Below are positions 2,710 through 51,334 of a DNA stretch of 64,000 nt, in pieces. The translations under genes were made by a program, and so were the position numbers. This stretch comes from a virus, in UHGV virus genome UHGV-0038492. One strand, given 5' to 3'. The stretch's first letter is position 1; every line of letters begins with the position of its first letter. The notes beneath the pieces were generated by a model, which saw only the letters and a list, made by a program, of their open reading frames with translations, did no database searches and had not been told where the DNA came from.

Positions 2710-5379
2710 TTAGAGAGTTTCATCGGTGTTGTCGTCTGTACCGGTATCCGTCTCGTCCGTGCCCTCAGTTGAAACTTCTTCTTCCGTTGTCGTATCGGTT
2801 TCCGTCGTTTCATCATCGGTCATGTCCAAGTCTTCATCACCGCCCAGATCGTCGCCACCAAAGTCGTTGCCCCCGCCGAAGTTATTGGCGTCTTCAGGAT
2901 TCAAATCAGCCGCTTTTGCTATCGTCTGAACTTTACCGGTCGCACGTTTTGCTAACTGAATCAGCGTCTTCGATGCTGCTGCAATTTCATCAGAAATCAT
3001 CTTGACGTTTTCACCACGTTTATCTTCATCGTAGATCAAATCAAACAGATCGGTTTCGATGCCCTGATTACGTAGCCAGTTGCGCGCGTAGAAGGTCTTA
3101 ACCATCGTCTTGAGGTCATCAGGTGACATTTCAATACCTTCGTTCTGAAGCATATTAGCAATGTCGTCCGTGACCACCAGATCTGCAAGTTTCTCGATAA
3201 ATTCATAGCGTTTATCGAAGAGATCAGCTTGAGATGCTGTTGCAGAAGTATCAGGCGGCGGCAAGGTGACCTTCATACCGTTTATAAACTTCGCCATATA
3301 CTCTGACGTTTGTTTTGTCATCTCTTCGCTAGTTACATTCGGATTCTGCTCACGGATATACTCAACGATAATACGGATGAGTTCTGCTTGCAGTTTCGGT
3401 GAAGCTTGCAGACTGTTTGTAACGTAGCGCGTAAGCGGGGTTGAGAGGATTTCCTGTTTCTTCACAATCTGTTGAGTAACCAACAGCGATTTAGAATAAA
3501 TCTGAGAAGCAAACTCCAGGTTCTCCGGGGTAAGTACAAGGTCAGGATCAACACACGCGATGTGACATGTACGGCGTAACAGGTTCTCGTCAATTTGTTG
3601 ATCAGGAACTTTATACTCCGGCGTGGTATCAGACACAGATACTTTGTGGCTGGCGTAGTAATCGTTACCCGTTACGTTAAAGGCAATCCCCGCGTTAGCC
3701 CCCATTGACCAGGCGTCGTTGATATCACCCCACATCGGCAGGCGACGATTGTAGGAATTAAGGATATCTGATTTAACTTGGTCAACAGTTTTTTGACCGT
3801 TTGCATCATCTGGTGACAGCTCAATGTCGTACTGCATGTGACGTGCCGAGTTCAGTACAGATGAGTTCATCGTTGCGAACAGCAGCGCCATCCTGACAGT
3901 AGAGATAATAAAGGAGCGCTCAGTAATAGAAACCCCGATACCGTCTTCGTTAAAGTCCGTTGCAAAATAGCACAAGTTATTAACCGGAATGTAAACCACC
4001 TGAGTATGACGTTTTGCGAGATGCCGCGCTAACAGAATACGACCGAATGTTTCGGTAATATTCATGCTGATTTCTGCGCCACCTAGTGCCTGACTTAATG
4101 CGCGTGCAAATTCGTTTTCAGCGATTTCACCACAACGTGTACTTAAACGGTTGGCGATTTCCGGGGTAATACGAGAAGTGTTCCCTAAGCCCAGATTAGA
4201 ACGGTTAATGATGCTGTCCGTCATCCCGTCGTTATTCAGGTAGTTCATAAAGTTCGCATCGCCGTACAGCGAGGAGCGAGCATTGATGAAGTTACCCATG
4301 TCATCTACGATGGTCAGATAACCGATAGGGTTACGAACGTCATCGCCAATTACCAGTGGCAGCGTTGACTCTGCGGGCAGTAAACGTTCGATGTATTCGA
4401 TTTTGTTATTCTCATCCATTGAGATAATAGGAATATCACCGTACGTTTGTGTTTTCGGTGTTGACTTATACGCCTCGTTTAAATCACCCAAGTTAATGAA
4501 CCCTTTTTCAGCAGCGTCACGCTGACGGTCATCGAAAGATTGATTAGGGTCGAACGGACTGCCACCGTTTGGTGTAGACGGCTTTTCATATGCGGCTTGC
4601 TCTAATTGCCCGTACAATCCCGTACGTGCGTTCTCATGCGCAATACGACGATACAAATCCGGCAGCATGGTAATGCGCGGGTTATCGGTAATCGTGATTT
4701 CCATCTGGAATTTATCCGAGAACATCGAATCGTGCTTACCGAAATCGATTTTCAATGTTTGTGGACCAGTAACGGCTCCGCGTAAACGGTTGAGAATTGA
4801 TTCTACACCAACTCGCTGCCCTTCTTTCGGCGCATTAATAGGCCCGAGGATACCAAGCTGTTGTTCGAAGAACGCCGTTTGAGAACGACGAATAGATTCA
4901 GTAGCGACCTTTGTATTCAGACCGAATAATTGGTCGAAGCCGGTATCCGAGATTATCATCACTGGACTTGCGCCTTTGGTTTTTAACGCATCGTAAATCC
5001 ACTGATATAATTTCTTAGGTAGCTGACGAATGTTATCGTGATAATCACGGGTCGGTGTCAGTAGCGCGTTACGCAGATCAATGGGGATGTCCGCGAAGTT
5101 GTCGTAAATCAACGTCGTGTTGATTAAGTCTTTTGTTGATAGCAGGCTCGAAGTTGCAATAGTAACGATTGTTTCGAGTTCAGGTAACGCATCAAAGATA
5201 CGTTCCGCATTTTTGATAGTACGAATACGTGAACTCGCAATTGCCGTGAGTTCTTGACGTGTTGGCGTAGAACCACCCTCGCTACGCGTACCGCGTTGTT
5301 GCTGAGGTGCTGGGCCCGTAGTTTTACGAAGAATTGCAGCTACGGCGGGGTCGCCCGTTAATTTACTAATATCGTCCAT
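2710..5379 (-). CDS. large hypothetical protein with strongly acidic C-terminal tail (possible virion protein)
   Basis: 889-aa ORF; last ~55 residues almost entirely D/E/T/G; no P-loop seen; a virion/portal-like role is speculation only. Confidence 0.8.
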   Translation of the reverse strand: MDDISKLTGDPAVAAILRKTTGPAPQQQRGTRSEGGSTPTRQELTAIASSRIRTIKNAERIFDALPELETIVTIATSSLLSTKDLINTTLIYDNFADIPIDLRNALLTPTRDYHDNIRQLPKKLYQWIYDALKTKGASPVMIISDTGFDQLFGLNTKVATESIRRSQTAFFEQQLGILGPINAPKEGQRVGVESILNRLRGAVTGPQTLKIDFGKHDSMFSDKFQMEITITDNPRITMLPDLYRRIAHENARTGLYGQLEQAAYEKPSTPNGGSPFDPNQSFDDRQRDAAEKGFINLGDLNEAYKSTPKTQTYGDIPIISMDENNKIEYIERLLPAESTLPLVIGDDVRNPIGYLTIVDDMGNFINARSSLYGDANFMNYLNNDGMTDSIINRSNLGLGNTSRITPEIANRLSTRCGEIAENEFARALSQALGGAEISMNITETFGRILLARHLAKRHTQVVYIPVNNLCYFATDFNEDGIGVSITERSFIISTVRMALLFATMNSSVLNSARHMQYDIELSPDDANGQKTVDQVKSDILNSYNRRLPMWGDINDAWSMGANAGIAFNVTGNDYYASHKVSVSDTTPEYKVPDQQIDENLLRRTCHIACVDPDLVLTPENLEFASQIYSKSLLVTQQIVKKQEILSTPLTRYVTNSLQASPKLQAELIRIIVEYIREQNPNVTSEEMTKQTSEYMAKFINGMKVTLPPPDTSATASQADLFDKRYEFIEKLADLVVTDDIANMLQNEGIEMSPDDLKTMVKTFYARNWLRNQGIETDLFDLIYDEDKRGENVKMISDEIAAASKTLIQLAKRATGKVQTIAKAADLNPEDANNFGGGNDFGGDDLGGDEDLDMTDDETTETDTTTEEEVSTEGTDETDTGTDDNTDETL

Positions 5380-9635: not shown

Positions 9636-10214
9636 ATGTCGCAACCAACACAAGACGTGTCAGCCGCAATTCTTGACATTCTTATCCAAGCAGGGAACAG
9701 AAAGTTAAGTAAAGAGCAGTCCGAAGAACTGTCTAAGATTCTCAAAGACAACTTCGGTGATGATGTCTCTGTAGACGTAACGCGGTCGGGTACAAAGATT
9801 CTGTCGGAGCTACGCCCAACGCTTCTTGAGAACATTGGAAAGATGGCGGAAAACTTTCAGCAGCAAGCCACAAATGCTGTAGAGAGTTTAGGTGACGAAG
9901 TAAGCAAAGAAACGATGTTGACACTGTGGCCGAAACTTGCCGGTGCACAGAAGTTCATTATTGTTCTGCTTGCACTCGCCACTGTGGTCGTGACAGGCTT
10001 CTTAGCGTACGACACGCATCAGAACTATCCAACAGACAGTATGGAAGTGTTGTTTGTATCCTTACTTCCGCTGTTCGGACTGGTAGTATTTGCAACGTGG
10101 CCGATTAAAACGTTGGCTTACAAGTCGTTGGAGATTGCTACCAAAGTTGTCGAGAAGAAACTTGAGAAATCAGGTCAGGTCGTCGCGAAGACGGAAACAA
10201 AGACAACGAAATAA
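9636..10214 (+). CDS. membrane protein (two predicted TM helices)
   Basis: GGAGG RBS; hydrophobic segments FIIVLLALATVVVTGFLAY and LFVSLLPLFGLVVFATW; followed by terminator. Confidence 0.65.
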   Translation: MSQPTQDVSAAILDILIQAGNRKLSKEQSEELSKILKDNFGDDVSVDVTRSGTKILSELRPTLLENIGKMAENFQQQATNAVESLGDEVSKETMLTLWPKLAGAQKFIIVLLALATVVVTGFLAYDTHQNYPTDSMEVLFVSLLPLFGLVVFATWPIKTLAYKSLEIATKVVEKKLEKSGQVVAKTETKTTK

Positions 10215-11448: not shown

Positions 11449-11925
11449 ATGATACGTGTCGAATATGAGACGCGGTGCTTAGAAGACAATCGAGCAAAAG
11501 CATTACGTTGTGTTGAAATCGTCCCCGAGCACGAACTGGATATCCAAGCTGGTAAGGTTCGGGGCGTTCCGGTTAAGATCGTACAACATAGCCATTGTTC
11601 GCAATATAAAGAGAAAGCTGTCCCAGTAGTACGTTCCAGTAAACGAGAAGACTTTTCAGAACTCCGTAAGTGTTTTCAACGACACTACCGTCGGAGTAAA
11701 TGGAAAGTGTTGGTATTAATGTTAGTCGACGATTTCATTAAAGACCTGGTTTGGGAAGAAGTGCTTAAAGAGCGTGGTTTTCAACCCAAACCGTTCTCGT
11801 ATCACTGGGAACGTTTCAAAAAGAAATACCACGAGTCATTGCGTTGGTCTCCGAACACCCGGAATATGATGCCACGTTTGGAATCAATGCCTTGGCTTCG
11901 TGTTTATCTCGATGAGGTAAACTGA
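11449..11925 (+). CDS. hypothetical protein
   Basis: 158-aa ORF with ATG start. Confidence 0.6.
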   Translation: MIRVEYETRCLEDNRAKALRCVEIVPEHELDIQAGKVRGVPVKIVQHSHCSQYKEKAVPVVRSSKREDFSELRKCFQRHYRRSKWKVLVLMLVDDFIKDLVWEEVLKERGFQPKPFSYHWERFKKKYHESLRWSPNTRNMMPRLESMPWLRVYLDEVN

Positions 11926-12314
11926 TGAAACGTTTTATTACTCCATTTCTAATGTTACTTTCGTTTTCTGTATTAGCTGATTTTAAACCTTACGATATCA
12001 GTCGTTACGAACCCGCTGTCCCTGGCGATAAACCGGTTGTGTTTAAAGCAGACGACCAACCCGTCACTGCGGTTCAAAACGATGAGTTTGCAGTGGTGAA
12101 TTACGGCAAAACGGACTTATGTCCTGCGGGTGGATTTTATCTGGTGAACATCAAACGTCGGACTTACCAGTTTGTTGATCCGGGTAGCTGCTCTGCAATG
12201 GTTAAGGTGACGTTAGAAACCGTACCTTACACGAATAAAAACATTAATATACAACGTTTAACCTTTTATGCGGGTGATGAAATCACAGCACGTTATCCGT
12301 TATACGGGTATTAG
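11925..12314 (+). CDS. secreted protein with N-terminal signal peptide
   Basis: MKRFITPFLMLLSFSVLADF has the n/h/c organisation of a Sec signal peptide; ATG overlaps upstream stop. Confidence 0.6.
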   Translation: MKRFITPFLMLLSFSVLADFKPYDISRYEPAVPGDKPVVFKADDQPVTAVQNDEFAVVNYGKTDLCPAGGFYLVNIKRRTYQFVDPGSCSAMVKVTLETVPYTNKNINIQRLTFYAGDEITARYPLYGY

Positions 12315-22256: not shown

Positions 22257-22294
22257 CCCCTCTCTCCGTTTGGAGAGAGGGTGTATTTATTTTT
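22257..22294 (+). terminator. intrinsic terminator
   Basis: CCCCTCTCTCCG-TTT-GGAGAGAGGG then T-rich tract; near-identical to the hairpin at 23304. Confidence 0.7.
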
Positions 22295-23303: not shown

Positions 23304-23342
23304 CCCCTCTCTCCGCTAGGAGAGAGGGTACTTTTATTTTTC
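23304..23342 (+). terminator. intrinsic terminator
   Basis: CCCCTCTCTCCG-CTA-GGAGAGAGGG then T-run. Confidence 0.7.
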
Positions 23343-26436: not shown

Positions 26437-26967
26437 GTGATAGCACGACTTGTGGGTTGGTTTAAGCAACGTCGTGCAAAGGCGGTCGAATGGCCGCCTA
26501 TTACGCATGACGAGAAAGTGGCTCTTTTTTTGGGGTATAACAAAGACTTGGGGAGATTAGGCGAGTTAATGCACTTAACGGAACGCCAGGTTTTTGCTAA
26601 GATTTCGAGCAGCGAGTTGCGTAAAGAAGTAATTCCCCACCTATCCTTTTTAGGGCAGGTTTATGCAAAGACGACAGAGGAATTTTTATCAACCCAAGGT
26701 AGCGAACGGCCACATATTCGGTTTTCCGTCGTAGGTGAACCTGATACGGTAGGTGAAATCGATTTTAAGATGCTGTATCGCAGAATAAAAGATGATGGGT
26801 TTATACATGTTAAACGATTATCAGAAACTTCTGTGGTGATTTATCATCGCACTGATCAGGATTTGTTAGGGTGTGTTATAAAGCTATCAAATTTACATAG
26901 TTTTTACGTTGATTTACTTACGGACTTTTATCCAGAACCTTGGTGCTTTATAGATGAAAATAAATGA
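26437..26967 (+). CDS. hypothetical protein
   Basis: 176-aa ORF with GTG start. Confidence 0.55.
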   Translation: MIARLVGWFKQRRAKAVEWPPITHDEKVALFLGYNKDLGRLGELMHLTERQVFAKISSSELRKEVIPHLSFLGQVYAKTTEEFLSTQGSERPHIRFSVVGEPDTVGEIDFKMLYRRIKDDGFIHVKRLSETSVVIYHRTDQDLLGCVIKLSNLHSFYVDLLTDFYPEPWCFIDENK

Positions 26968-27166
26968 CGGATATATCATTTCAGCAATCGTTTCAACTGC
27001 GTTGATTGTAGCGATGTTGATGTTCTACGTTAAGACGTCTGACGAATCACGTAGAGACTCCCTTTATCGTGAATGTATGTCAGGCACTACTGTAGATAGC
27101 CCACGTTACGCTGAATTAGTAATGGCGTGTACGGAATACGCTAATCGAATGGGAGGAGGGAAATGA
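26954..27166 (+). CDS. small membrane protein (single N-terminal TM helix)
   Basis: 70 aa; IISAIVSTALIVAMLMFYV hydrophobic helix; paralogous to next ORF. Confidence 0.5.
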   Translation: MKINDGYIISAIVSTALIVAMLMFYVKTSDESRRDSLYRECMSGTTVDSPRYAELVMACTEYANRMGGGK

Positions 27167-27360
27167 AAATTTGGTTGCCGATTGTAGTTTTTATCGTTAT
27201 TGCAGGGGCTTTAGCGAATGCCGAGTACGACTCTCGTACTTTAGAAACGAAACGTGAATTGTACCAGGACTGTATAAAGGATTATACACCGGGCACAGAA
27301 CTTCATGCGCAAGCTGTAAAAAGCTGTGCGCTGATGGCTGAATCGCAGACTCGTTCCTAA
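27163..27360 (+). CDS. small membrane protein, tandem paralog
   Basis: 65 aa; WLPIVVFIVIAGALA helix; shares RxxLYxxC...C pattern with the previous ORF. Confidence 0.5.
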   Translation: MKIWLPIVVFIVIAGALANAEYDSRTLETKRELYQDCIKDYTPGTELHAQAVKSCALMAESQTRS

Positions 27361-27734
27361 TGCGTATCTGGACGCTACAACTCGCTAAGTGGCGGTTAGC
27401 TAAGCAGAAAGGATTTCACGCAGTGGATATCACTGTGAAGTCAGGGCGGAAGGAACTCGCCCCCGACTGGGATTTCCTAATGGCGTATAAAAACTCTGCC
27501 CAAGACGCCGCCGCTGAGCGTGAATACACGATAAAGTATTTGTACAAGCTCGAACGACTGTTAGATGCCGATGCCGAAACGTTGGTCTCGTTGCTTAGAC
27601 ACGAAGATTTGGTTTTGATGTGTTATTGTCCCGCAGGTAAGTTTTGTCATCGTCACCTACTGGCGAGCAAACTTCAAGAAGTAGGAATGATGTTCGGTAT
27701 CGATGTTGAGTTGTGTGGCGAATTAACCGAATGA
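27360..27734 (+). CDS. hypothetical protein with Cys/His cluster
   Basis: 124 aa; CYCPAGKFCHRH could be a metal-binding site; terminator downstream. Confidence 0.55.
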   Translation: MRIWTLQLAKWRLAKQKGFHAVDITVKSGRKELAPDWDFLMAYKNSAQDAAAEREYTIKYLYKLERLLDADAETLVSLLRHEDLVLMCYCPAGKFCHRHLLASKLQEVGMMFGIDVELCGELTE

Positions 27735-27796: not shown

Positions 27797-27843
27797 CTCC
27801 TACCGCCCGATTCTATGGGCGGTAGGTGTTTTATTTTTTTTTC
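27797..27843 (+). terminator. intrinsic terminator
   Basis: CTACCGCCC...GGGCGGTAG hairpin then T10. Confidence 0.75.
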
Positions 27844-27859: not shown

Positions 27860-28423
27860 GTGGCCACATCTTACGTACCTGATTTGAGTCTGACCTCAGC
27901 AGAGCTAGTGGTCGCTTTAATCAATCATGATAACGGGTTACAGCTTACACTAAACGAAATCCGTATTAGCGGAACTGTAACAAACCCATCCCCAACAACT
28001 TCGCGACGTAACACTATCACCGAAATCAGTAAAATCAGAAAACCAGATGGTGCGTCTGTTGTGGTTTACTACGACAGACTTGACGCCGATGAGGTATTAA
28101 CGTCCGAACCTATTTTGATTTCGTTAGACGGTACCGAAGCGAACATTCGTGATGTGCTTAGTGTTGTAAATGAATACTGCGGTACGAATTTACAACCTGA
28201 GGACTTACGTGCCTCAGATATTACTTCAGGTAATGATCCTATTGCTATTAACGTTGCTGACGATTCTCCTGCCTGGATGAATGCGTTTATGGTGACGTTG
28301 TTTGATAAAACCGAACGTGCGTTAGCGAACGAAGAAGATGAAATCTTCTGCATCGGTGACGATAGCGTTCTTACATTCGAGGTTACAGATGGCGACAGCA
28401 CTGAAGAAGACGAGACTCCATGA
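27860..28423 (+). CDS. fibre-associated small protein, family member 1
   Basis: GTG start after GGAGGG; homologous to ORF 38024 (PDLSLTS..., ...NLQPEDL); directly precedes a fibre gene. Confidence 0.65.
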   Translation: MATSYVPDLSLTSAELVVALINHDNGLQLTLNEIRISGTVTNPSPTTSRRNTITEISKIRKPDGASVVVYYDRLDADEVLTSEPILISLDGTEANIRDVLSVVNEYCGTNLQPEDLRASDITSGNDPIAINVADDSPAWMNAFMVTLFDKTERALANEEDEIFCIGDDSVLTFEVTDGDSTEEDETP

Positions 28424-31937: not shown

Positions 31938-34900
31938 ATGGCAAAAGCGGTAAAGAAAATACGATTACATAATCTTAGACCATATACCGGTGATATCGGT
32001 GAAGGCGTTTTACTTTTCTCCAAGGATGAGAAAGATTATAAGTTACCAGTCCGTGAGATCATTGCGGATATTGACACCGTACGTAATGCGGTGGCTGAAG
32101 CACAGACAGCAGCAACACAATCACAAGAAGCTGCAACTCAGGCTACACAAGCAAAGAATTTAGCAGAAACAGCAAAACAACAAACTGACACCGTTGCAGC
32201 TACGGTTGCTCAACAAGCGCAAACTGTAACCGAAAAAGCAACTGAAGTCGGTACAAAACACACTGAAGTGTTAGCCGCGAAAACTGCGGTAGACGAAGTA
32301 TCAGTGTCGGTGAATGAGAAGGCTCAAGCTGTCGCCGCAAGCGAACAATCGGTGACGGCTGCTGCGGCTGATGTAACTAAGAAAGCAGAAACGGTTGCGC
32401 AACAGGCCGGACAAGTTCAACAGACGGCTACCAGCGTCGCAAATACTGCGGCATCAGTTGAGGCCAGTAAAGGTGCAGTGGAGAAAATTGCTGCGCAGGT
32501 CACGAAAGATAAAGAAACGTCGGAGGGCGCGGCTACCCGCTCAGAAGCGGCCGCACAACGTGCTGAGAAAATCGCCGCCCAAGGCTTAGTTGACGCTAGT
32601 ACGATCGGTAAAGGCATCGTTAAACTTAACGATACCCTGACTAGTGAATCCGTGACGGAGGCTGCCACGCCGTCCACGGTTAAACAGCTGAACGACGAAT
32701 TACAGTTAAAAGCCAATAAACATTCGCCGAATTTTACGGGTAAACCGACATCCCCAAAACCGCCGAAGGACTCGAATGACACGAGCATCTCCACAACGTC
32801 CTGGGTGCGTGACGCGATTGCTGAATTGGTTGGTTCCTCACCCGAGACGTTAAATACCTTAGCGGAATTAGCAGAGGCGTTAGGTAATGACCCTAACTTC
32901 GCAACAACGATCACTGAGGAGCTTGCGCAGAAGCAACCTATCAGCCCATTACTCACCGCAATCGCTGCGGTTACAAGTGCAGCAAACAAACTCCTGTATT
33001 TCACGGGCTCTAATAAAGTCGAGTTAACCGATTTTACAGAAACTGCCAGATCCTTGTTAGCGAAAGGGTCAACTGCGGATATTATTAACTTCCTGGGTTT
33101 GAAACCCACCGTTGATAAAGCAAACGGCGCACTACAGAAAAACTCTAACGGTGCTGATATCCCAAATAAAGAAACTTTTGCTCGCAACATCGGCCTATCT
33201 CCTGATACCTATCTGCGTTTCCGTGGCAAAATGCCTGTAGATGCTGATATTAACACATTTGCTCCAGATGCTAATTACACAGGAACGTGGTCTAAGTCGA
33301 CATCAACCAATGCGTCGATGGCAAAACACTTCCCAGAAGACGGTGCAGTCGGTTATCTGGAAGTGTATAAAGCGGGCAACTACAGTGGCGCGCAACGTTT
33401 TACCTGTCGTAATGGTAACGTGTACAACCGTATGTTGTCAGCCGCGTGGAACGGAACTAATGGCCCGTGGTCGCCGTGGAGAATGGTAACTACCGGTGTA
33501 CGCCCGTTATCTACATCGATTGATCTGAACTCTTTAGGCGGTGCCGAACACATGGGTAACTGGCGTAACTCGTCCAGTTCGTTAGCGGTGTTTGACAGAC
33601 ATTATCCTGAAGAGGGCGGTGGCGCTCAAGGTGTTCTGGAAGTCATGGAAGGTGGTCTTTACGGACGGTTGCAGCGATACACTACGCGTCGTGGCACAAT
33701 GTATGTCCGTGGTTTGACTGCAACATGGGATTCATCAAACCCACAATGGGAAGATTGGATTCAGGTTGGTTATCAGACTGACGGTGCTTTCTTTAAAGCC
33801 AATTTTAACGATCTCGTTAAACCGGGTCGTTTCAGTGTCACTGGTCAGGCAACTAACGGCCCACTTACCGGTTCTTCTGGCGAAACCATATTAGGCGTTT
33901 GTGAAGTTACCTTACGCTTAGACGGTACAGGGGTCGAACAGAATTATACCACATACGGCACGGGTGCAGAAACTAAAGGTCGTAAATTCCAACGTATCCG
34001 TACGGGTAACATTTGGAGCGATTGGCGTGAGGTTTTCACATCCTATTCGCTTCCGTTGGCCTTAGGTATCGGTGGGGTTGCTGCCAAGGTCGATCCGTTA
34101 GACTGGCAAACCTTCGACTTCGTTCCTGGCCAGATGATAAGCACACCGTTGAATACCATGAAAAACATTCCTGCGGGAATGGATTGGGGTGTTATTGACG
34201 GTAACTTGGTCACTATTCTTGTAGGGGCGTCGGAGGACACCGGTACTGGTCGGAGTATGTTGGTCTGGCGTGGTACAGTGTCTACTGCTAACTATCGCTT
34301 CTTTGCAGTACGTATCGCCGGTGAGAAGGGTAGCCGTACGATTACGCCACGACAGATGCCTGTGTTAAATGCAGCACACACTTGGGCCGAGAAACAAACG
34401 TTCTCTAAAGGCTTAGCGGGTGAATTGACAGGTAATGCGTCAACGGCAACGAAACTGAAAACAGCCCGTTTAATCGGTGGTGTAAGTTTCGACGGCACTA
34501 GCGACATTCCACTCCCTGGTGTTAACCAGCAAGGTAATCAAAACACCACTGGGAACGCGGGAACCGCAACCAAATTACAAACGGCTCGAAACATCAACGG
34601 TGTGAAATTCGATGGCTCTAGAGACATCAATATCAACACCTTGGTAGGACGTGGACGTGTTACTGCACTGACGGGATCAAACAAAGGTACGCCTGGTATT
34701 CAGATGTACGAAGTTTACAATAACGGTTATCCGACCGCTTATGGTAACTTATTGCATTTGGGTGGTGCTACTGCGCTAGGCGAAGGCGAGTTGTTAATCG
34801 GATGGTCGGGGACGAGTGGTGCGCACGCGCCAGTTTATATTCGTAGCCGACGTGATACGGCTGACGCGCCGTGGTCAGATTGGGCACAAGTTTATACTGC

Positions 34901-36497
34901 CCGTGACAGCATTCCTGGCGTAAATGCCACAGGTAATCAAGATACTACCGGCAATGCCGCTACCGCGACGAAACTGAAAACCGCTCGCAGAATTGGAGGC
35001 GTTACCTTTGACGGTACTGGGGATATCAATTTACCGGGGGTTAACCAAGCCGGTAACCAGAATACGTCAGGTAATGCTGCGACAGCGACTAAACTTCAGA
35101 CTGCGCGAAATATAGGCGGTGTGGCTTTTGATGGTACTAAAGACATCAGTTTACCTGGTGTAAACCAGACGGGTAATCAGTCGACTACCGGAAACGCAGC
35201 CACGGCCACAAAGTTGCAGACAGCTCGTACCATTAACGGTATCCCATTTGACGGCACTAGAAATATATCGTTAGGGCCTGCCGATATAGGTTGCCCGGCA
35301 TCACCTAGTGGTTGGTTAGAAACTGGCGCTGATGGCGCTGCAATAACTACAGCACAGCTAGTGACGTTATTGAAAAATAACGGCGCGTTTACCACAAGAT
35401 CGTGGGTTGCTCGCTGCGCATGGGCTTATGCCGCTAGTGCAAGTATACCTCATAGCGAGACGGGTTGTGGTGTTATTCCATTAGCTGGGGCTGTTATAGA
35501 AGTGATTAGTAACGGCAACAGCACAAACAACTACACGATCCGTATAACGACCGCCACAACGACGAGCGTCTCCGGCGCACTCACTAATGCGGAGTTTATC
35601 TACGTATTTAACGGCGATACTTACTCACCAGGTTGGCGTCGCGTGTACAATACGAGAAACAAGCCAACTGCTGCGGATGTTGGGGCGTTGCCATTATCTG
35701 GCGGTCAGTTGAATGGCGCGTTGGGTATTGGAACCACTAATGCTTTAGGTGGGAACTCCATAGTTTTAGGGGATAATGACACCGGCCTTAAGCAGAACGG
35801 GGATGGCGTTCTAGATGTTTACGCCAATAATGCTCATGTTTTACGCTTTACGAGTGGGGCTGTTCAAAGCAATAAACCTCTCAACGTTACCGGAGATATA
35901 AGAACCAATACTTGGGTTTATGCAAATAGATATTCTATTAACAGCAACTCAGGTTCTTGGATTAGCATGAGAGACCATAACGTTATTTTTGGTCTTAATC
36001 CGGTAGGAACTAGTTCTGCTCAGGCATTGTTAAGACAAGACCATGCTGATAGGAAATTTTTTGTTGGTGGTTTAGGTAACTATCAATTCGGCTTTTACAT
36101 GATAAACAACTCACGTACTGATAATGGCACCGATGCTAATGCTTATTTGCAAAACGACGGTACTTGGGTTTGTGGTGGGAACGGTAACTTTAACGACGTT
36201 TATATACGATCTGACGCCCGGCTGAAAAGTAATTTCTCTCCAATAACTAATGCATTGGAGAAGGTAAAGGAATTGTCAGGTTTAATATACGACAAAAAGG
36301 AGAACTTTAAATCCACTAATGTTCATCGTGAGGCTGGTGTTGTAGCGCAGACCTTACAAAAAGTGTTACCTGAAGCAGTTTCTACTTATAAAGACGCTAA
36401 TGGTGAGGACGTTTTGACGGTCTCTAACTCTGCACAAATAGCTCTACTTATTGAAGCAATAAAGGAGTTGGCGGAGATAATTGAGACCAAGTTATAA
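31938..36497 (+). CDS. long tail fibre protein with C-terminal intramolecular chaperone (peptidase S74-like) domain
   Basis: 1519 aa; conserved N-terminal anchor; Ala/Gln/Thr-rich helical stretch; four knob-like repeats ending W-x-x-W; five copies of the TGNAATATKLQTAR...FDG fibre repeat; C-terminal SDARLKSN motif of endosialidase/T5-fibre-type self-cleaving chaperones. Confidence 0.9.
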   Translation: MAKAVKKIRLHNLRPYTGDIGEGVLLFSKDEKDYKLPVREIIADIDTVRNAVAEAQTAATQSQEAATQATQAKNLAETAKQQTDTVAATVAQQAQTVTEKATEVGTKHTEVLAAKTAVDEVSVSVNEKAQAVAASEQSVTAAAADVTKKAETVAQQAGQVQQTATSVANTAASVEASKGAVEKIAAQVTKDKETSEGAATRSEAAAQRAEKIAAQGLVDASTIGKGIVKLNDTLTSESVTEAATPSTVKQLNDELQLKANKHSPNFTGKPTSPKPPKDSNDTSISTTSWVRDAIAELVGSSPETLNTLAELAEALGNDPNFATTITEELAQKQPISPLLTAIAAVTSAANKLLYFTGSNKVELTDFTETARSLLAKGSTADIINFLGLKPTVDKANGALQKNSNGADIPNKETFARNIGLSPDTYLRFRGKMPVDADINTFAPDANYTGTWSKSTSTNASMAKHFPEDGAVGYLEVYKAGNYSGAQRFTCRNGNVYNRMLSAAWNGTNGPWSPWRMVTTGVRPLSTSIDLNSLGGAEHMGNWRNSSSSLAVFDRHYPEEGGGAQGVLEVMEGGLYGRLQRYTTRRGTMYVRGLTATWDSSNPQWEDWIQVGYQTDGAFFKANFNDLVKPGRFSVTGQATNGPLTGSSGETILGVCEVTLRLDGTGVEQNYTTYGTGAETKGRKFQRIRTGNIWSDWREVFTSYSLPLALGIGGVAAKVDPLDWQTFDFVPGQMISTPLNTMKNIPAGMDWGVIDGNLVTILVGASEDTGTGRSMLVWRGTVSTANYRFFAVRIAGEKGSRTITPRQMPVLNAAHTWAEKQTFSKGLAGELTGNASTATKLKTARLIGGVSFDGTSDIPLPGVNQQGNQNTTGNAGTATKLQTARNINGVKFDGSRDININTLVGRGRVTALTGSNKGTPGIQMYEVYNNGYPTAYGNLLHLGGATALGEGELLIGWSGTSGAHAPVYIRSRRDTADAPWSDWAQVYTARDSIPGVNATGNQDTTGNAATATKLKTARRIGGVTFDGTGDINLPGVNQAGNQNTSGNAATATKLQTARNIGGVAFDGTKDISLPGVNQTGNQSTTGNAATATKLQTARTINGIPFDGTRNISLGPADIGCPASPSGWLETGADGAAITTAQLVTLLKNNGAFTTRSWVARCAWAYAASASIPHSETGCGVIPLAGAVIEVISNGNSTNNYTIRITTATTTSVSGALTNAEFIYVFNGDTYSPGWRRVYNTRNKPTAADVGALPLSGGQLNGALGIGTTNALGGNSIVLGDNDTGLKQNGDGVLDVYANNAHVLRFTSGAVQSNKPLNVTGDIRTNTWVYANRYSINSNSGSWISMRDHNVIFGLNPVGTSSAQALLRQDHADRKFFVGGLGNYQFGFYMINNSRTDNGTDANAYLQNDGTWVCGGNGNFNDVYIRSDARLKSNFSPITNALEKVKELSGLIYDKKENFKSTNVHREAGVVAQTLQKVLPEAVSTYKDANGEDVLTVSNSAQIALLIEAIKELAEIIETKL
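34428..35272 (+). repeat. in-frame tandem tail-fibre repeats (about 38 aa each), five copies interrupted by one knob-like domain
   Basis: Protein-level repeats GNQNTTGNAGTATKLQTARNINGVKFDGSRDI and variants; nucleotide copies are diverged. Confidence 0.8.
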
Positions 36498-36501
36498 TTA
36501 T

Positions 36502-36524
36502 CAGTGAGGGGTTCCCCCTCACTG
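36502..36524 (+). terminator. hairpin after the long fibre gene (no T-run)
   Basis: CAGTGAGGGG-TT-CCCCTCACTG perfect palindrome directly after the stop codon. Confidence 0.4.
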
Positions 36525-36544
36525 ACTCACAAGTACGTTATAAG

Positions 36545-37336
36545 GTGGTTATTTTGTCTGTATCAGCGACTCCCGGATGGATTGGTTCTTCAGCAAAAGC
36601 TGAAGCTGGTAATGGTTGGATGTCTGGCGCGATGCACACACTCGGTGTGCCAGTTCCAGGCTGGATGTCGCAATTGGCGGGAAAATCAAAAGAGGCTCAG
36701 TATTCGATCGGGGCTAATCACAATTACAATAAAGATACGCTTATTAACTATTTACGTTCCATAGGCTCTACTGCTGTCGTTGTGACCATTACAGGGGATT
36801 TAGTGTCTTATAGTAGCGGGGTTCCTTGTTTAGAGTTCCCTAGCAATCTTCCAAATTCGTATATTACCCTCATCATCAATCCTGGGGTTACAGTATACGG
36901 CAGAGGAGGCAACGGCGGTTCTAACTCACCAGGCGGTGCAGGTGGAACCGCAATACAGAACGGAATAGGAAACAGACTGCGTATAACCAACCGTGGCGCT
37001 ATTGCCGGAGGCGGTGGCGGCGGTGGCGGCGGTAACAGGGGTAGACTAATATTTGGTGGTGGCGGTGGTCGCCCATTCGGTGCTGGTGGGTCTTCCTCTC
37101 ATATGAGTTCCGGTGCGGCTGCTGGTACTATTTCCGCTCCTGGTAGAGGATCTGTTGGTGAGGGGTCTCTTAGTGCATATACAGGCGGTTCGGGTGGTAA
37201 TGTCGGTGCTGGTGGAGGAAGATGTAATACTCATGGTAACGGTACAGAATATAACGGCGGAGCAGCTGGTGCAGCTGTTACTGGTAATGCGCCAAGATGG
37301 GACGCAGTAGGTGCAATATACGGTTCACGTGTTTAA
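36545..37336 (+). CDS. glycine-rich fibre-associated protein
   Basis: 263 aa; run of nine Gly encoded by (GGN)9 and overall Gly/Ala/Ser-rich C-terminal part; N-terminus homologous to next ORF; start may be GTG 36545 or TTG 36554. Confidence 0.65.
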   Translation: MVILSVSATPGWIGSSAKAEAGNGWMSGAMHTLGVPVPGWMSQLAGKSKEAQYSIGANHNYNKDTLINYLRSIGSTAVVVTITGDLVSYSSGVPCLEFPSNLPNSYITLIINPGVTVYGRGGNGGSNSPGGAGGTAIQNGIGNRLRITNRGAIAGGGGGGGGGNRGRLIFGGGGGRPFGAGGSSSHMSSGAAAGTISAPGRGSVGEGSLSAYTGGSGGNVGAGGGRCNTHGNGTEYNGGAAGAAVTGNAPRWDAVGAIYGSRV

Positions 37337-37352
37337 TTAAAAAGGAGGGTAG

Positions 37353-37865
37353 ATGGGGGTAGCGTCAGGATGGGTCGGATCTTCAGCTAAGAATGAAACT
37401 GGCCAACAATGGATGAGCGCTGCGGGTAGTAAATTAGGATTGGGTAGACCTTTTATGATGAGCCAAATGGTAGGCAAGTCCGTAGGTTGCAAAATAGCAA
37501 CAGCTTATTATAAAACGTCAAATACTGATAAAGTAGAGAACTGGGGTGCTGTCGGAGCCGATTGGCCGTTGGTAGATAAGAACAAAGGAACGCTTTCTGG
37601 TGCCTCGAACTGTGGCTTAGGACGTTTAGTGGGGATCGTACTTACGCAAGCTCACTACATTTCTGGTGTTCCACCCACTGCGGCTTTATACATCGCAGGA
37701 GGAAGGGCAAGTAATATTACAGTAACAGTTGGTGGTGTTTCGCAAGCATTTACTTACGATAGTGTTATTAACGGTTTTCACTATTATTGGCAAGGAACGC
37801 CTAGTTCGGCCTTTATAGCGGCAATGAAGAAGACGGGTGTTACACAAGATTTGAAAGTTAGCTAA
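37353..37865 (+). CDS. paralog of the Gly-rich protein N-terminal domain
   Basis: AAAGGAGGG RBS; MGVASGWVGSSAKNETGQQWMSAAG aligns with SVSATPGWIGSSAKAEAGNGWMSGA of the upstream ORF. Confidence 0.65.
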   Translation: MGVASGWVGSSAKNETGQQWMSAAGSKLGLGRPFMMSQMVGKSVGCKIATAYYKTSNTDKVENWGAVGADWPLVDKNKGTLSGASNCGLGRLVGIVLTQAHYISGVPPTAALYIAGGRASNITVTVGGVSQAFTYDSVINGFHYYWQGTPSSAFIAAMKKTGVTQDLKVS

Positions 37866-38023: not shown

Positions 38024-38536
38024 GTGGAACAATTCACGCCAGATTTGTCGTTAACTTCACTTAACATGGTTATTTCACTGGTTAACCATGACCTCCAGCT
38101 TGACTTGCAAGAGAACGAGGTTGAAGTCAGCGACGTAAAGACCAGTAACGAAATGGATCGTGACACCACTGCTGTTGTAAAGATAAAACGTCCCGGTAAC
38201 AGAACGTTACAAATCTATTACAACCGTTTAACCGCAGAACGTTGGTTAAACCAGCAACCTATTCTGGTGCAAGTAACTGGAGAGGGGTTTAACACACACG
38301 ATTTAATCGATGCGATTAACGCAGCCTGTGGTAGTAACCTGCAACCCGAAGATCTTCAGGACGATTCATTTACAGTAGGAAAAGACGCTGTAACGTTACA
38401 GGTATCACCTAACTCCCTAAGTTATAAAGGCCAATTCTCTGTTTTGGTTTTTGGTAACGGCGAAGAGGCCGCAGTAACAAAAGATGACAACCTAATCGTT
38501 ACCGCAGATAATCGCGTCTTAACCTTTGGAGGTTAA
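38024..38536 (+). CDS. fibre-associated small protein, family member 2
   Basis: GTG start after AGGAGG; homologous to ORF 27860; precedes a fibre gene. Confidence 0.65.
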   Translation: MEQFTPDLSLTSLNMVISLVNHDLQLDLQENEVEVSDVKTSNEMDRDTTAVVKIKRPGNRTLQIYYNRLTAERWLNQQPILVQVTGEGFNTHDLIDAINAACGSNLQPEDLQDDSFTVGKDAVTLQVSPNSLSYKGQFSVLVFGNGEEAAVTKDDNLIVTADNRVLTFGG

Positions 38537-47325: not shown

Positions 47326-48174
47326 ATGTCTCTTACGTCAAAACAGAAACTGCTAAAACTCATCAACACTGAAAACAATATTATTCCACCGTTGACTTTC
47401 AGTGATGTTGAAATCGGGGAACCTACCGGTACTGGGGTTGATACCCAGGTGGTTCTGACCTCTAAACTTAAAGGCGATGAGTCTACTACTTTAACAGTGA
47501 CTTACCACCGTCGTAACTTACCTGACTACCTAACCGGTGAGTTGGTATTCGGTAACGACAGTGTGGTAACCGCATCAGATTTGCTTAATGCGATTAACGC
47601 AAAATACAACCTAAATATTTTACCCTCGGATATCGTTGACGCAAAAGTTGAAGGCGAAACCCATCAGCTTACCGCTAACGAGAAATCTTACGAGTGGTGC
47701 GGTGTAGTAACGCTTACGCTGCGCGATCCTATTGACCTGACTGAACTGTTACCGGTTACTCAATTAGAGAATCTGGTAGAGTATCCGTCCACGAAGAAAG
47801 GTAACGCGGCGGTTTATTCTCACCCGATTGATTTCACCGCAGAAAAAGATTACCTTGACCCGATTACTATCAACGACGCTGTAGACTTGGTAGAATTAGC
47901 TACTAAACTGGATAGCGTCGTTGACGAGAAATGGGTAAGCGTACCTAAGAACGCGGCTAACAACCTGTACGGAGCGAAGATTATTTACGATGGTCCAACC
48001 GCAGGTTACGAAGGCGCAAATACGAAGTTCACTCGTGTGTTGGTGCTAACACTCAGCCCGCTGTGTTCTAACCTGACCGGTAACCTGTTAATTCACTTTA
48101 ACGGGACCGATCGTCCGAAGTCGAAGATTGAATTAGCACAGACTAATCCGGTCTTACCGGGATTCTTAGATTAA
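47326..48174 (+). CDS. hypothetical protein, fibre-associated small-protein family (extended)
   Basis: 282 aa; contains SDLLNAINAKYNLNILPSDI matching the family motif. Confidence 0.65.
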   Translation: MSLTSKQKLLKLINTENNIIPPLTFSDVEIGEPTGTGVDTQVVLTSKLKGDESTTLTVTYHRRNLPDYLTGELVFGNDSVVTASDLLNAINAKYNLNILPSDIVDAKVEGETHQLTANEKSYEWCGVVTLTLRDPIDLTELLPVTQLENLVEYPSTKKGNAAVYSHPIDFTAEKDYLDPITINDAVDLVELATKLDSVVDEKWVSVPKNAANNLYGAKIIYDGPTAGYEGANTKFTRVLVLTLSPLCSNLTGNLLIHFNGTDRPKSKIELAQTNPVLPGFLD

Positions 48175-48187
48175 GAGGATTACAGTA

Positions 48188-48667
48188 ATGGCCAATCAAG
48201 AAACTATCTTCGACCTTATTAAAAAGGCTAACCCGGACGCTGAGTTCGACACCACCAAAGTCACACTGGGTGAACCGGTTGTGACCACCGGTACTTACAA
48301 TACCGAAATTACGGTTGCGTCGATTAAGAATCTCGGTTATGTTAATAAGCAAACGTTCCAGTATAACCGCATTGACGCAGGTTTGTATTTCCTGAACGTA
48401 TTACCGAAATTGTTGGTAGAATCTGCAACGACTACCGCTGACTTACTGCCCGTCATTAACGAGCAGTACAGCCTAACCCTTACAGAAGACGACGTGTGGG
48501 TAGAACAGGTTGGTGAGTTACCGTTAGACGGTAGCGCAATCGAACACGGTATTTTCTTCCGTCCTGAGTGTCTGACCTGGGTTGGTGGTTTTACAGTGCG
48601 TGTTGCGCGTAAACCGGCTGACGCCACACCGCCAAAGACGGCGTCTCGCGCTAAAAAGAAAAAATAA
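48188..48667 (+). CDS. hypothetical protein, same family
   Basis: 159 aa; ADLLPVINEQYSLTLTEDDV motif; Lys-rich C-terminus; terminator downstream. Confidence 0.6.
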   Translation: MANQETIFDLIKKANPDAEFDTTKVTLGEPVVTTGTYNTEITVASIKNLGYVNKQTFQYNRIDAGLYFLNVLPKLLVESATTTADLLPVINEQYSLTLTEDDVWVEQVGELPLDGSAIEHGIFFRPECLTWVGGFTVRVARKPADATPPKTASRAKKKK

Positions 48668-48729: not shown

Positions 48730-49320
48730 ATGGCCGAACGTTGGACTAAAGAAGGTATTATTGAATCCAAAACCGATTTGGAAGGTGGGTACGTCAACGA
48801 CCCTGACGACAAAGGTGGAGAAACCTGTCACGGGGTAACACTGACAACTGCACGCGAATACGGGTACAAAGGAAGAATGAAAGATCTGACCCGTGCGCAA
48901 GCGTTTGACATTTACGATCGTGGTTGGTGGAAGAAACTTAAACTCGATGAGATTTTCGCTATCTCGCCGATACTCGCCGACCGGATGTTTGATTTTGCTA
49001 TTAACTCTGGCCGTGTTAACTGTGTGAAGTCATTACAACGTATTCTCAACGTTTTAAATAACGAAGGGAAACTTTACGCAGATATTGACACCGACGGTGG
49101 TATGGGACCTAAAACACTAGGTGCTCTGAATGCTTATCTAAATTACCGTAAAGGCGAGGGATTAGGCATCTTAATCTTTGCGTTAATCTCACACCAGGTA
49201 ACCTACTACACGGAAATCTCCGAAAAGCGTAAGAAGAATGAAAAATTCGCTTACGGCTGGTACGGACGTGTGTACAGGGAAATGCCGGATTATGTAGTGA
49301 AGGCGGGGTTAGTAAAATGA
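48730..49320 (+). CDS. endolysin-like peptidoglycan hydrolase (GH108-type N-acetylmuramidase)
   Basis: N-terminal EGGYVNDPDDKGGETCHGVT matches the conserved GH108 signature (EGGYxNDPxDxGGxTxxG). Confidence 0.7.
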   Translation: MAERWTKEGIIESKTDLEGGYVNDPDDKGGETCHGVTLTTAREYGYKGRMKDLTRAQAFDIYDRGWWKKLKLDEIFAISPILADRMFDFAINSGRVNCVKSLQRILNVLNNEGKLYADIDTDGGMGPKTLGALNAYLNYRKGEGLGILIFALISHQVTYYTEISEKRKKNEKFAYGWYGRVYREMPDYVVKAGLVK

Positions 49321-49436: not shown

Positions 49437-50102
49437 ATGGAAAAGCTTCAATATAAACGTTTAGATGATAAGTGGTTTGTATTAACGGAGGATTACCATT
49501 ATCCGTTTACGTTACGTGAGATTTATCACGACCACGTACACTTAGACCGTGCGGTTTATTTAACCGGTGTATTACCTGACACGCAACTGTGGTTAACCGC
49601 TCCGAAAGGGTTCGTAACGGACTTAGCGTCGATACCCGAACACTTACAGGGAATTTTCCATCCTGACGGGCCTTGGGCACCGGCTGCGTGTATTCACGAC
49701 TTGTTATACCAGAAATGCAGTACGGAACGTAGCTACCCTATGACGCCCGGTGGAAACGTTTCTCGCATTATCGATAAAGAGTTCGCTGACTTAACGTTTC
49801 TGCGTATTATGCAGTCGTTAGAAATCTCACCGTATATCTGCCAAACGTTTTATAAAGCCGTTGTAGGATTCGGTTGGGATGCTTACGTAGACCCTAACGC
49901 GAAACCGTCTTATACCACTAACGACTACCGTACGTTAGATTACAATCGAAACTATTTGTTCGTTCGCGAGTTTAAGGAGCCTGCTATTCCTGACCACGAA
50001 CGAGTTGATATCACCACAGGTTGTCCCGTTAATGTCAAATACCTGAACATTAAACGGGCTTTTCTGTCTGGGAGGGAAGATGTTTCATCCAAATCCGAGT
50101 AA
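49437..50102 (+). CDS. hypothetical protein (DUF1353-like, tentative)
   Basis: AAGGAAAGG RBS before ATG 49437; segment GFVTDLASIP resembles DUF1353-type phage proteins. Confidence 0.55.
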   Translation: MEKLQYKRLDDKWFVLTEDYHYPFTLREIYHDHVHLDRAVYLTGVLPDTQLWLTAPKGFVTDLASIPEHLQGIFHPDGPWAPAACIHDLLYQKCSTERSYPMTPGGNVSRIIDKEFADLTFLRIMQSLEISPYICQTFYKAVVGFGWDAYVDPNAKPSYTTNDYRTLDYNRNYLFVREFKEPAIPDHERVDITTGCPVNVKYLNIKRAFLSGREDVSSKSE

Positions 50103-50595
50103 CTTTAAAATCAAAGAGTTAGTACCGCAATCGTACATCACCAAATACGGTGATTCTGCAATTCGGTTTATGAACCCGCTGTTAATGATTTCGCTACAGC
50201 AGATTCGTAACCGTTTCGGCAGAATGGTAATTAACTCGTCTGCTGCGCAACAACGTGGTTTAAGAACCTTAGACTTTTTCATCAACCAAGAAAAGCCTAA
50301 GGGTGGTAACTATAAACAACGTGCTTTACAACTCTATTCCGATTCAGGAAGTCAGCACAAGTTCGGTAACGCGTTCGACGCAACATTGTTAGATTCAACG
50401 GTAAAACAAGTCCACGATTACATCGCCGCCAATCCTGATGAGTTTCCGTTTATTCACTTTATTGAATGCGACATCAGTTGGTTACATATCGATGTTCGTA
50501 ACCAACCGAATATCACGTTCTGGTCACCGAATCGGGGTACTGTGAAAGTCGCGAAACAAAGCCCTATCGATTGGAGCGCCTTAGTTAAAATCTAA
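50080..50595 (+). CDS. peptidase M15-like (LAS-type zinc peptidoglycan peptidase)
   Basis: SQHKFGNAFD fits the SxHxxGxAxD zinc-binding motif and a later WLHID provides the second His. Confidence 0.5.
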   Translation: MFHPNPSNFKIKELVPQSYITKYGDSAIRFMNPLLMISLQQIRNRFGRMVINSSAAQQRGLRTLDFFINQEKPKGGNYKQRALQLYSDSGSQHKFGNAFDATLLDSTVKQVHDYIAANPDEFPFIHFIECDISWLHIDVRNQPNITFWSPNRGTVKVAKQSPIDWSALVKI

Positions 50596-50679: not shown

Positions 50680-50718
50680 ATAAACCTACCCTCCTGCTTA
50701 GCAGGAGGGTATTTATTA
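50680..50718. terminator. bidirectional terminator between convergent genes
   Basis: ACCCTCCTGC-TTA-GCAGGAGGGT flanked by A-rich and T-rich tracts. Confidence 0.7.
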
Positions 50719-51195
50719 TTCTACCGGGTGCAGCATAGTGCCGGTATCTGGAATGCTGCCTTCGTGACATCTGAAGAACGTTACACCTTTACCTTCACCT
50801 GTTTTGTAGTTGATGGTAGAATACGCAAACGTTGGGGTTTTCGACAGTAACCCGTTTACACGGTAATAGCGCTCACCGGTAACAACGTTTAAGTTACCGT
50901 CCACTTTACCTAACAGGTCTTTATAAAGTTGCGGAGATTCAATTTTACCTTCGTCCCATGTAGCGACCCAATTCGCTCCTGTATCCATGACTAACACCGA
51001 AAGGGGCATCAGTTTTAGGCTAGACGGTACCGGTTTAAAATCAGCGAATTCTTGAGAAGCACCTGTACAGGTGTAAATGACCATATCGTGTTGGTCAACA
51101 GGTACGGTGGAGAACTGACCTTCTGCGTTCGGCTGAATAGCACAACTTGCCAATGTCATTACAAAAGCAACGACCACGAGAATGCGTTTTAGCAT
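50716..51195 (-). CDS. lipoprotein (signal peptide with lipobox LASC)
   Basis: AAGGATGAG RBS before ATG at 51195; MLKRILVVVAFVMTLASC; lone minus-strand gene between two plus-strand blocks with terminators on both sides. Confidence 0.65.
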   Translation of the reverse strand: MLKRILVVVAFVMTLASCAIQPNAEGQFSTVPVDQHDMVIYTCTGASQEFADFKPVPSSLKLMPLSVLVMDTGANWVATWDEGKIESPQLYKDLLGKVDGNLNVVTGERYYRVNGLLSKTPTFAYSTINYKTGEGKGVTFFRCHEGSIPDTGTMLHPVE

Positions 51196-51334
51196 AATCT
51201 CATCCTTATTAAAATTAAGAAAAATTAATTTTTTCAGGTTAGCGCTTACTGCCAACCGTCATATCTATATTTTAGGAAATGTCTAAAATAACATTCTTAT
51301 GCAATCCACCCCTGCCACTTACGAGGTAAAAACG

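Follow-up and report, generated by a model that had tools for sequence, protein, structure and literature searches.

Overlapping genes for two small, putatively exported Cys-hairpin proteins in an SPN3US-like jumbo phage

Of all that phage genomes encode, small exported proteins are, to our knowledge, the least annotated. The few studied cases (Spackle, Imm and RI of phage T4, and Llp of phage T5) act in superinfection, lysis timing and receptor masking. Here we describe two overlapping mini-genes, ORF1 and ORF2, in a 64,000-nucleotide (nt) stretch of the virus genome UHGV-0038492 (hereafter the window, to which positions refer unless another record is named). The window has ~70% DNA identity to Salmonella phage SPN3US and its relatives and, judged by sequence, belongs to an SPN3US-like jumbo phage. 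Two described systems are close in design. T4 Spackle is exported by a signal sequence as a 75-amino-acid (aa) periplasmic helical protein with one disulfide, and inhibits the tail lysozyme gp5 of a superinfecting phage (PMC7677548). In T4 lysis, the periplasmic antiholin RI binds the periplasmic domain of holin T, which has a single transmembrane domain (TMD); the lysis cassette of phiKZ has been experimentally defined as gp141, gp141.1, gp142, gp143 and gp144 (PMC12894885). ORF1 and ORF2 represent a family of small, putatively exported phage proteins that is restricted to one lineage and has so far gone uncatalogued. They carry a predicted helical hairpin mini-domain with C-x17-C spacing, for which we find three apparent export solutions: a transmembrane (TM) anchor, a signal peptide and, on marginal evidence, lipid attachment.

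Both genes lie on the plus strand. ORF1 (26954..27166, 70 aa) is predicted to encode a bitopic membrane protein, N-in/C-out, with a periplasmic helix-loop-helix, and ORF2 (27163..27360, 65 aa) a secreted periplasmic mini-protein of ~45 aa when mature, a putative paralog of ORF1. An earlier note on this DNA had placed two such frames here with a 4-nt overlap, and they are indeed present, sharing ATGA at 27163-27166. A Shine-Dalgarno sequence for ORF2, GGGAGGAGGG (27151..27160, + strand), lies within the 3' end of ORF1, 2 nt before the ATG at 27163; only a weak GGTG stands 5' of the ORF1 start. That start overlaps a 176-aa ORF (26437..26967, +), which matched nothing in Pfam or PHROGs, by 14 nt, and the ORF2 stop overlaps the ATG (TAATG) of a DUF488-N3a gene (27360..27734, +; Pfam PF22751, E = 7e-12). 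Because each gene overlaps the next, the four make up a string that appears translationally coupled; the 176-aa ORF and ORF1 are probably co-transcribed and translationally coupled. The order (a 173-176-aa ORF, the 70-aa and 65-aa ORFs, then DUF488) is kept, overlaps included, in every related contig inspected, and the ORF1-ORF2 tandem was intact in all five distinct relatives inspected (5/5). In all relatives the ORF1 start overlaps the preceding stop by 4 or 14 nt, an arrangement typical of translational coupling.

Purifying selection acts on both ORFs. The ratio of non-synonymous to synonymous substitution rates (dN/dS; Nei-Gojobori, three relatives, dS up to 1.2) was 0.14-0.17 for ORF1 and 0.16-0.29 for ORF2. 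Among 5.8 billion proteins we found 33 homolog clusters for ORF1 and 51 for ORF2, with identity down to 71-74% and, a few variant or fragmentary entries aside, constant lengths of 70 and 65 aa. ORF1 was left unannotated by the Prokaryotic Genome Annotation Pipeline (PGAP) in the related records NZ_CP173450.1 (L003 4561-4773) and NZ_CP134650.1 (L020 ~4950-5162), and its frame is intact in both. By these comparative measures, ORF1 and ORF2 are genuine genes.

The ORF1 product begins with ~6 predicted cytoplasmic residues, followed by a TM anchor at residues 7-26 (YIISAIVSTALIVAMLMFYV; 26972..27031, +) called from hydropathy (Kyte-Doolittle mean 2.45 over 19 residues of the stretch 7/8-26). In 31 distinct homologs 15 of the 20 anchor positions are invariant, among them a conserved Ser/Thr face (S10, S14, T15), and the family alignment has 30 invariant columns in all. 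The remaining 44 aa are predicted to form a periplasmic hairpin that holds Cys41 and Cys59 (C-x17-C, a predicted disulfide; 27074..27130, +; TGT codons 27074-27076 and 27128-27130). C41 is invariant and C59 is present in all full-length homologs. The AlphaFold2 (AF2) models were built from a combined alignment of the family; that of ORF1 has a predicted local distance difference test score (pLDDT) of 78.9, with helices at 3-41 and 52-67 joined by a loop at 42-51.

The N-terminus of ORF2 is of another kind. Rule-based inspection, the only basis for this call, gives a predicted Sec signal peptide at residues 1-20 (MK / IWLPIVVFIVIAGAL / ANA; 27163..27222, +) with cleavage before E21. Its hydrophobic stretch, residues 3-17, has a Kyte-Doolittle mean of 2.78 over 15 residues, and most homologs have Ala at -3 and -1 (ALANA, ALASA, ALAKA). 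Only 4 of the 20 N-terminal positions are invariant in the sampled set, in which residues 37-59 are invariant or nearly so. A conserved anchor in ORF1 and a variable N-terminus with AxA in ORF2 fit a stable anchor and a cleavable signal peptide, respectively. The earlier note had given each protein one N-terminal TM helix: both do have a single hydrophobic stretch, but that of ORF2, with its 15-residue h-region and A-N-A|E, resembles a cleavable signal peptide instead. Cys37 and Cys55 of ORF2 (C-x17-C; 27271..27327, +; TGT codons 27271-27273 and 27325-27327) are both invariant. The ORF2 model (pLDDT 77.7) has helices at 4-38 and 46-64 around a loop at 39-45; like that of ORF1, it puts one Cys on each helix. 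In one sub-clade of ORF2 homologs (P0080-P0082) an extra Cys stands 2 residues past the predicted cleavage site (ALASAEC...), so that the mature form would have three Cys.

The two proteins share more than their Cys spacing. Each has a linker followed by [KR]..LY..C, exactly 17 residues, and C..A. The RxxLYxxC...C pattern that the earlier note ascribed to both is exact in ORF1 (R34-x-x-L-Y-x-x-C41...C59); in ORF2 (K30-R-E-L-Y-x-x-C37...C55) the Arg is displaced by one position, while the C-x17-C is common to both. BLASTP aligned ORF1 with ORF2 at E = 2e-4, and hhalign aligned the two families at E = 3.9e-4 with a probability of only 36%. With the soluble domains alone, the score was reached by 7 of 20,000 shuffles. 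This evidence, weak but consistent, indicates similarity beyond chance and suggests that ORF1 and ORF2 are distant paralogs. In a 221.9-kb relative, hmmsearch over all ORFs returned exactly two family members and no further paralogs.

In protein searches the family was confined to its own lineage; the searches of 5.8 billion proteins, taken with the profile search described below, returned beyond that lineage only SPN3US_0116, two marginal lipoproteins and spurious plant proteins. SPN3US_0116 is a 69-aa protein with the same TM and C-x17-C build at a nearby position in SPN3US. ORF1 aligned with this protein (gp116) by BLASTP at E = 0.005, and ORF2 gave no BLASTP alignment with it; in shuffle tests its score was reached by 4 of 20,000 against ORF2 and by 61 of 20,000 against ORF1. 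Neither ORF matched phrog_28359, the SPN3US_0116 family, among PHROGs at E <= 1. SPN3US_0116 resembles the pair in its hydrophobic N-terminus, ~15-residue linker and [LF][YFR]xxC-x17-C..A, and in its neighbourhood, directly after the gp115 homolog. It differs in that it is only ~20-25% identical, is present as a single copy and stands before rather than after the intervening genes. Shared architecture, the C-x17-C and significant pairwise similarity all link it to ORF1 and ORF2. A second SPN3US protein, SPN3US_0118, has a soluble domain that aligned with the family profile at E = 0.006 (hhalign) with both Cys in register; like Asesino gp134, it comes from the same genomic slot and combines a signal peptide with a C-x21/22-C hairpin. 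Searches of the SPN3US literature turned up nothing on gp116, gp118, a holin or a transcript map covering these genes. In several SPFM Salmonella phages the proteins on record (P0090-P0093) are scrambled permutations of SPN3US_0116, which looks like an annotation or assembly artefact.

Beyond the lineage, the family profile, run against 1.84 billion representative proteins, returned only two phage proteins of 65-70 aa, P0096 (E = 1.3e-4) and P0097 (E = 3.1e-4), and spurious plant pentatricopeptide repeat (PPR) proteins. In P0096 and P0097 a lipobox (LLSAC and FLSAC) precedes LFxNCI...(S/T)PxYAExVKACxDAA, in which both Cys align with those of ORF1 and ORF2; they differ from the pair in their lipobox Cys anchor and in a Cys spacing of 15 or 18 residues. 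None of 20,000 shuffles reached the score of ORF1 against mature P0096, and 17 of 20,000 reached that of ORF2 against P0096. The best tblastn match of P0096 in 7.3 Gb of plasmids fell in the ORF1 slot, unannotated there, of a related 222-kb element, at E = 0.4 only. P0096 was found in T4-like metagenomic contigs with a Gp23 capsid gene, and P0097 in a cluster of small phage-like genes. An IMG/VR search with the lipoprotein sub-alignment yielded no confirmed locus, and tblastn of ORF1 and ORF2 against phages gave only noise (E = 8-9). A back-translated VKACxDAAI pattern had two matches, both due to chance.

That the same domain occurs on a TM anchor, on a signal peptide and, marginally, on a lipobox argues for an exported domain, and two invariant Cys on opposite helices, which probably form a disulfide across the modelled hairpin, would place it in the oxidising periplasm. 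From sequence, then, we infer that the C-terminal hairpins of ORF1 and ORF2 are periplasmic, the lipoprotein link being marginal. Signal cleavage of ORF2, and any interaction between ORF1 and ORF2, are likewise things that we infer. Taken together, we regard this structural and topological description of the pair as likely to be right.

Upstream of the pair lie genes for a GNAT protein and a Dam methylase; downstream are genes for DUF7941 proteins, together with a tail-fibre module that carries Gp38-type adhesins. What lies between the gp115 homolog and DUF488 differs from one related phage to another: in SPN3US the slot holds 0116 (TM, C-x17-C), 0117, 0118 (signal peptide, C-x21-C) and 0119; in Asesino a 58-aa two-TM protein stands directly before a signal-peptide C-x22-C protein (gp133/gp134, L010 6748-7213); Wellington, Machina and SPAsTU have two-TM mini-proteins. 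The two-TM mini-proteins found in this slot in Erwinia and Salmonella jumbo phages are 58-67 aa long (L010 6748-7213, L011 6100-6303, L012 9093-9575 and L013 7902-8105). Such a pairing, of a small membrane protein and a secreted protein with a Cys hairpin, may recur among these phages. The slot is thus a hot spot for small envelope proteins, and its genes behave as accessory rather than core.

Exported hairpins, a replaceable slot and a large tail-borne transglycosylase (a close relative encodes a tail protein of 2377 aa that includes an SLT domain) together favour an accessory role that acts at the envelope. By analogy with T4 Spackle, the pair would most plausibly serve in superinfection exclusion or in protection from lysis from without; we put the probability of this reading at about 0.35-0.4. 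ORF1 and ORF2 would have arisen by duplication, each exporting a ~45-residue Cys-stapled helix-loop-helix. The ORF1 hairpin would be tethered to the inner membrane by its 20-residue anchor (N-in, C-out), and that of ORF2 would be freed into the periplasm by signal-peptidase cleavage. Both are probably made together from one message, coupled to the 176-aa and DUF488 proteins. In an exclusion role their target would be something that an incoming phage passes through the periplasm, for example a tail-borne cell-wall hydrolase. The two copies, one anchored and one free, might act in two compartments or heterodimerise with each other.

Several points weigh against such a role. No homolog with a known function was found in domain libraries or in protein and structure searches, and we detected no sequence similarity between Spackle and the pair. 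Queried with the family profile, PDB sequences gave nothing related at E <= 10, Spackle included, and Foldseek with the ORF2 model gave no match at E <= 0.001 in the PDB or BFVD; from a bare hairpin, however, no significant fold match would be expected. An exclusion model also offers no evident part for the tight coupling of the pair to the 176-aa ORF and DUF488, whose products are probably cytoplasmic. An exclusion factor would be expected early, and a promoter and terminator scan of the operon sequence did not reveal its expression class. The tie to the lipoproteins P0096 and P0097 depends on marginal E-values. Finally, signal cleavage and the disulfide are predictions, and the two Cys may have some other function. 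Neither ORF1 and ORF2 nor their soluble domains had a usable match in Pfam, PHROGs or NCBIfam; a DUF1311 chain (E = 5.4) and small phage "lipoproteins" (E = 0.4-3) listed by Foldseek are not evidence.

The predicted periplasm-facing location would suit another role equally. The hairpins could modulate a host periplasmic or inner-membrane machine (the divisome, secretion, synthesis or hydrolysis of the cell wall, or a membrane-bound defence sensor) for the benefit of the current infection, and single-pass phage proteins that inhibit division proteins, such as SPO1 gp56, offer a precedent. The conservation of the ORF1 TM suggests a specific intramembrane partner, and co-expression with uncharacterised, probably cytoplasmic proteins, DUF488 among them, would fit a takeover of this kind. 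Nothing in the data indicates a particular host target, though; domain-library and PDB searches found no similarity to known inhibitors, and a variable, replaceable slot argues against an essential step. We consider host takeover possible but clearly less probable than exclusion.

Control of lysis timing, one of the functions that the earlier note had raised, is unlikely. On this reading, ORF1 would act as a minimal class III-like holin with one TMD and ORF2 as a secreted antiholin that binds the holin hairpin and delays hole formation. Residues 7-26 of ORF1 do supply at least one TM domain, as a holin has; this helix is strongly conserved, with a Ser/Thr face; it is plausible that paralogous domains heterodimerise; and the topology parallels that of T4 T and RI (PMC12894885). 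Moreover, among the components of the phiKZ cassette only the SLT domain of gp144 had a match in the genome of the relative, and homologs of the phiKZ holin, regulator and spanins were undetected, so the pair might in principle fill the holin slot of this lineage.

The location of the pair argues otherwise. Its neighbours are the 176-aa ORF and DUF488, and no endolysin gene adjoins it: the nearest hydrolase genes are ~21 kb away, at 48730-49320 (a GH108 muramidase that has a PG_binding_3 domain) and at 50080-50595 (an M15-like peptidase; phrog_894, whose annotation is endolysin). They flank a DUF1353 gene and have no membrane protein beside them. A core lysis function should be conserved, but the slot is not: one family member lies near it in SPN3US, and none in the slot of Asesino, Wellington, Machina or SPAsTU. 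The proteins themselves fit no better. ORF1 offers only ~6 cytoplasmic and 44 periplasmic residues where T and gp142 carry a large regulatory domain, and tblastn and phmmer found no similarity to gp142, nor did Pfam or PHROGs give a holin match (T4 T was not compared directly). In ORF2 the conserved part is the exported domain. SAR (signal-anchor-release) domains of the RI type are weakly hydrophobic and rich in Gly, Ala and Ser, and the h-region of ORF2, on inspection only, is unlike them: it is strongly hydrophobic and ends in AxA.

Better-placed candidates occur in the relative NZ_CP173450.1, beyond the bounds of the window. There a signal-peptide SLT transglycosylase (216997-217683) is followed by a 169-aa protein and then by a two-TM 159-aa protein (215948-216427), and membrane mini-proteins of 44 and 66 aa with 1-2 TM (219683-219990) lie ~2 kb from the SLT gene. 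An i-spanin-like 167-aa protein is followed directly by an exported Pro-rich 151-aa protein (211308-212270). Of the holin/antiholin or immunity functions that the earlier note offered for such pairs, the holin half thus finds no support here, and the immunity-type half, a periplasm-acting accessory protein, would fit the data better. The stronger proposal, that the pair is an unrecognised minimal lysis clock of SPN3US-like jumbo phages in which an ORF1 holin hairpin is capped by its secreted antiholin paralog, is quite unlikely. On the minus strand near the two hydrolase genes, we also observed a gene for a 159-aa lipoprotein (50716-51195, lipobox LASC, phrog_9559).

A two-component spanin, with ORF1 as inner-membrane and ORF2 as outer-membrane subunit, would explain adjacent overlapping genes of which the first is TM-anchored, and a periplasmic Cys in both products, but the ORF2 family has no lipobox (ALANA|EYD, no Cys at +1), which effectively refutes it; the 44-aa periplasmic part of ORF1 is folded back in the AF2 model, whereas lambda Rz and phiKZ gp141 have long coiled coils, and the i-spanin-like and Pro-rich proteins of the relative make a better pair, so we hold this to be very improbable. 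That these are chance reading frames, or that only one of them is a real gene, is scarcely credible: the omission of ORF1 by PGAP from two RefSeq records, the weak GGTG and the overlap with the preceding ORF would fit it, but stand against the low dN/dS of ORF1 at dS up to 1.2, its 70-aa length in 31 distinct homologs with invariant Cys and TM, and the overlap with the upstream gene in all relatives. Roles outside all of these retain a sizeable minority of the weight.

The four-gene string closes a larger gene unit. A strong intrinsic-terminator-like hairpin at 27799..27826 (+; 11-bp stem with 8 GC pairs, followed by a T-run) ends the gene string that contains the pair, and a strong one at 23305-23328 stands directly before the string's first gene, so that the two bracket a unit of about ten genes ending with the four-gene string. 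The hairpins at 22258-22281 and 23305-23328 share the stem CCCTCTCTCCG...GGAGAGAGGG, which appears to be a reused terminator module.

Further on in the window, a region spanning 31938-37865 contains the gene for a tail fibre of 1519 aa, which combines Phage_fiber_2 repeats with a Peptidase_S74 chaperone domain. The two T4 Gp38-type adhesin genes that come after the tail fibre (36545-37336 and 37353-37865) complete a T-even-style receptor-binding module in a phiKZ-like jumbo phage, and six DUF7941 paralogs are spread across the tail-fibre region (27860-28423, 38024-38536, 47326-48174, 48188-48667, 51299-51871 and 51943-52473). Next to a RuvC-like resolvase gene, 9636-10214 encodes a 192-aa protein (phrog_8722) with a soluble N-terminal domain of ~105 aa and two strong hydrophobic helices. 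Further signal-peptide proteins of 129-160 aa are encoded at 11925-12314 of the window and at 1909-2298, 2735-3217 and 3236-3628 of NZ_CP173450.1, two of them sharing a CPAG(G/Y)(F/Y)Y motif. The presence of several such proteins points to a sizeable secreted repertoire beyond the pair.

The carrier of these genes is a jumbo phage that appears in bacterial assemblies. At 93% identity the window matches a circular E. coli 98232 "plasmid" of 221,873 bp, and near-identical genomes are on record as circular "plasmids" of ~222 kb from E. coli 98232 and Enterobacter ludwigii (records NZ_CP173450.1 and NZ_CP134650.1). Homologs of ORF1 and ORF2 also lie on 220-230-kb contigs in many isolate assemblies of Salmonella, E. 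coli and Shigella. This suggests stable carriage of a lytic-type jumbo phage, as a carrier state, by pseudolysogeny or by plasmid-like maintenance. The phage occurs as an element of 220-230 kb in many isolate assemblies from Salmonella, E. coli, Shigella and Enterobacter. A superinfection block, if true, would affect therapy cocktails of SPN3US-like phages used against strains that already have the element. Lysis control, if true, would instead fill the missing holin slot of the lineage. For annotation, the point is that PGAP misses ORF1.

EexN, the entry-exclusion lipoprotein of IncN plasmids, is similarly small and exported, has a helix-Cys-loop-Cys-helix and blocks incoming DNA; it differs in its C-x11-C spacing and lipobox and is an architectural and conceptual analogue only. 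ORF1 and ORF2 did not match the EexN profile NF033894. A lead through P0096, which matched that NCBIfam profile at E = 0.006 (16.4 bits against a cut-off of 33), was dropped, as hhalign of the P0096-side and R46 eexN soluble domains gave E = 0.47 over 7 columns. In T4 T/RI and phiKZ gp142/gp143, as predicted here, a single-TMD N-in/C-out protein has a small exported periplasmic partner. T and gp142 have large regulatory domains, whereas ORF1 has a 44-aa hairpin; compared with gp142/gp143, moreover, the pair shows no similarity, lies outside any lysis cassette and has an ORF2 signal unlike a SAR domain. T4 Spackle (Sp, gene 61.3) is a single five-helix bundle of 75 aa when mature, whereas the pair would consist of anchored and secreted paralogs, each a two-helix hairpin of ~45 aa. 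Spackle has a cleavable signal and a tiny all-helical mature domain with one intramolecular disulfide; the architecture of ORF2, with its predicted cleavage and disulfide, is compatible with these. The SLT domain of the 2377-aa tail protein would be a matching target for a Spackle-like inhibition, in the place that the tail lysozyme gp5 holds in T4.

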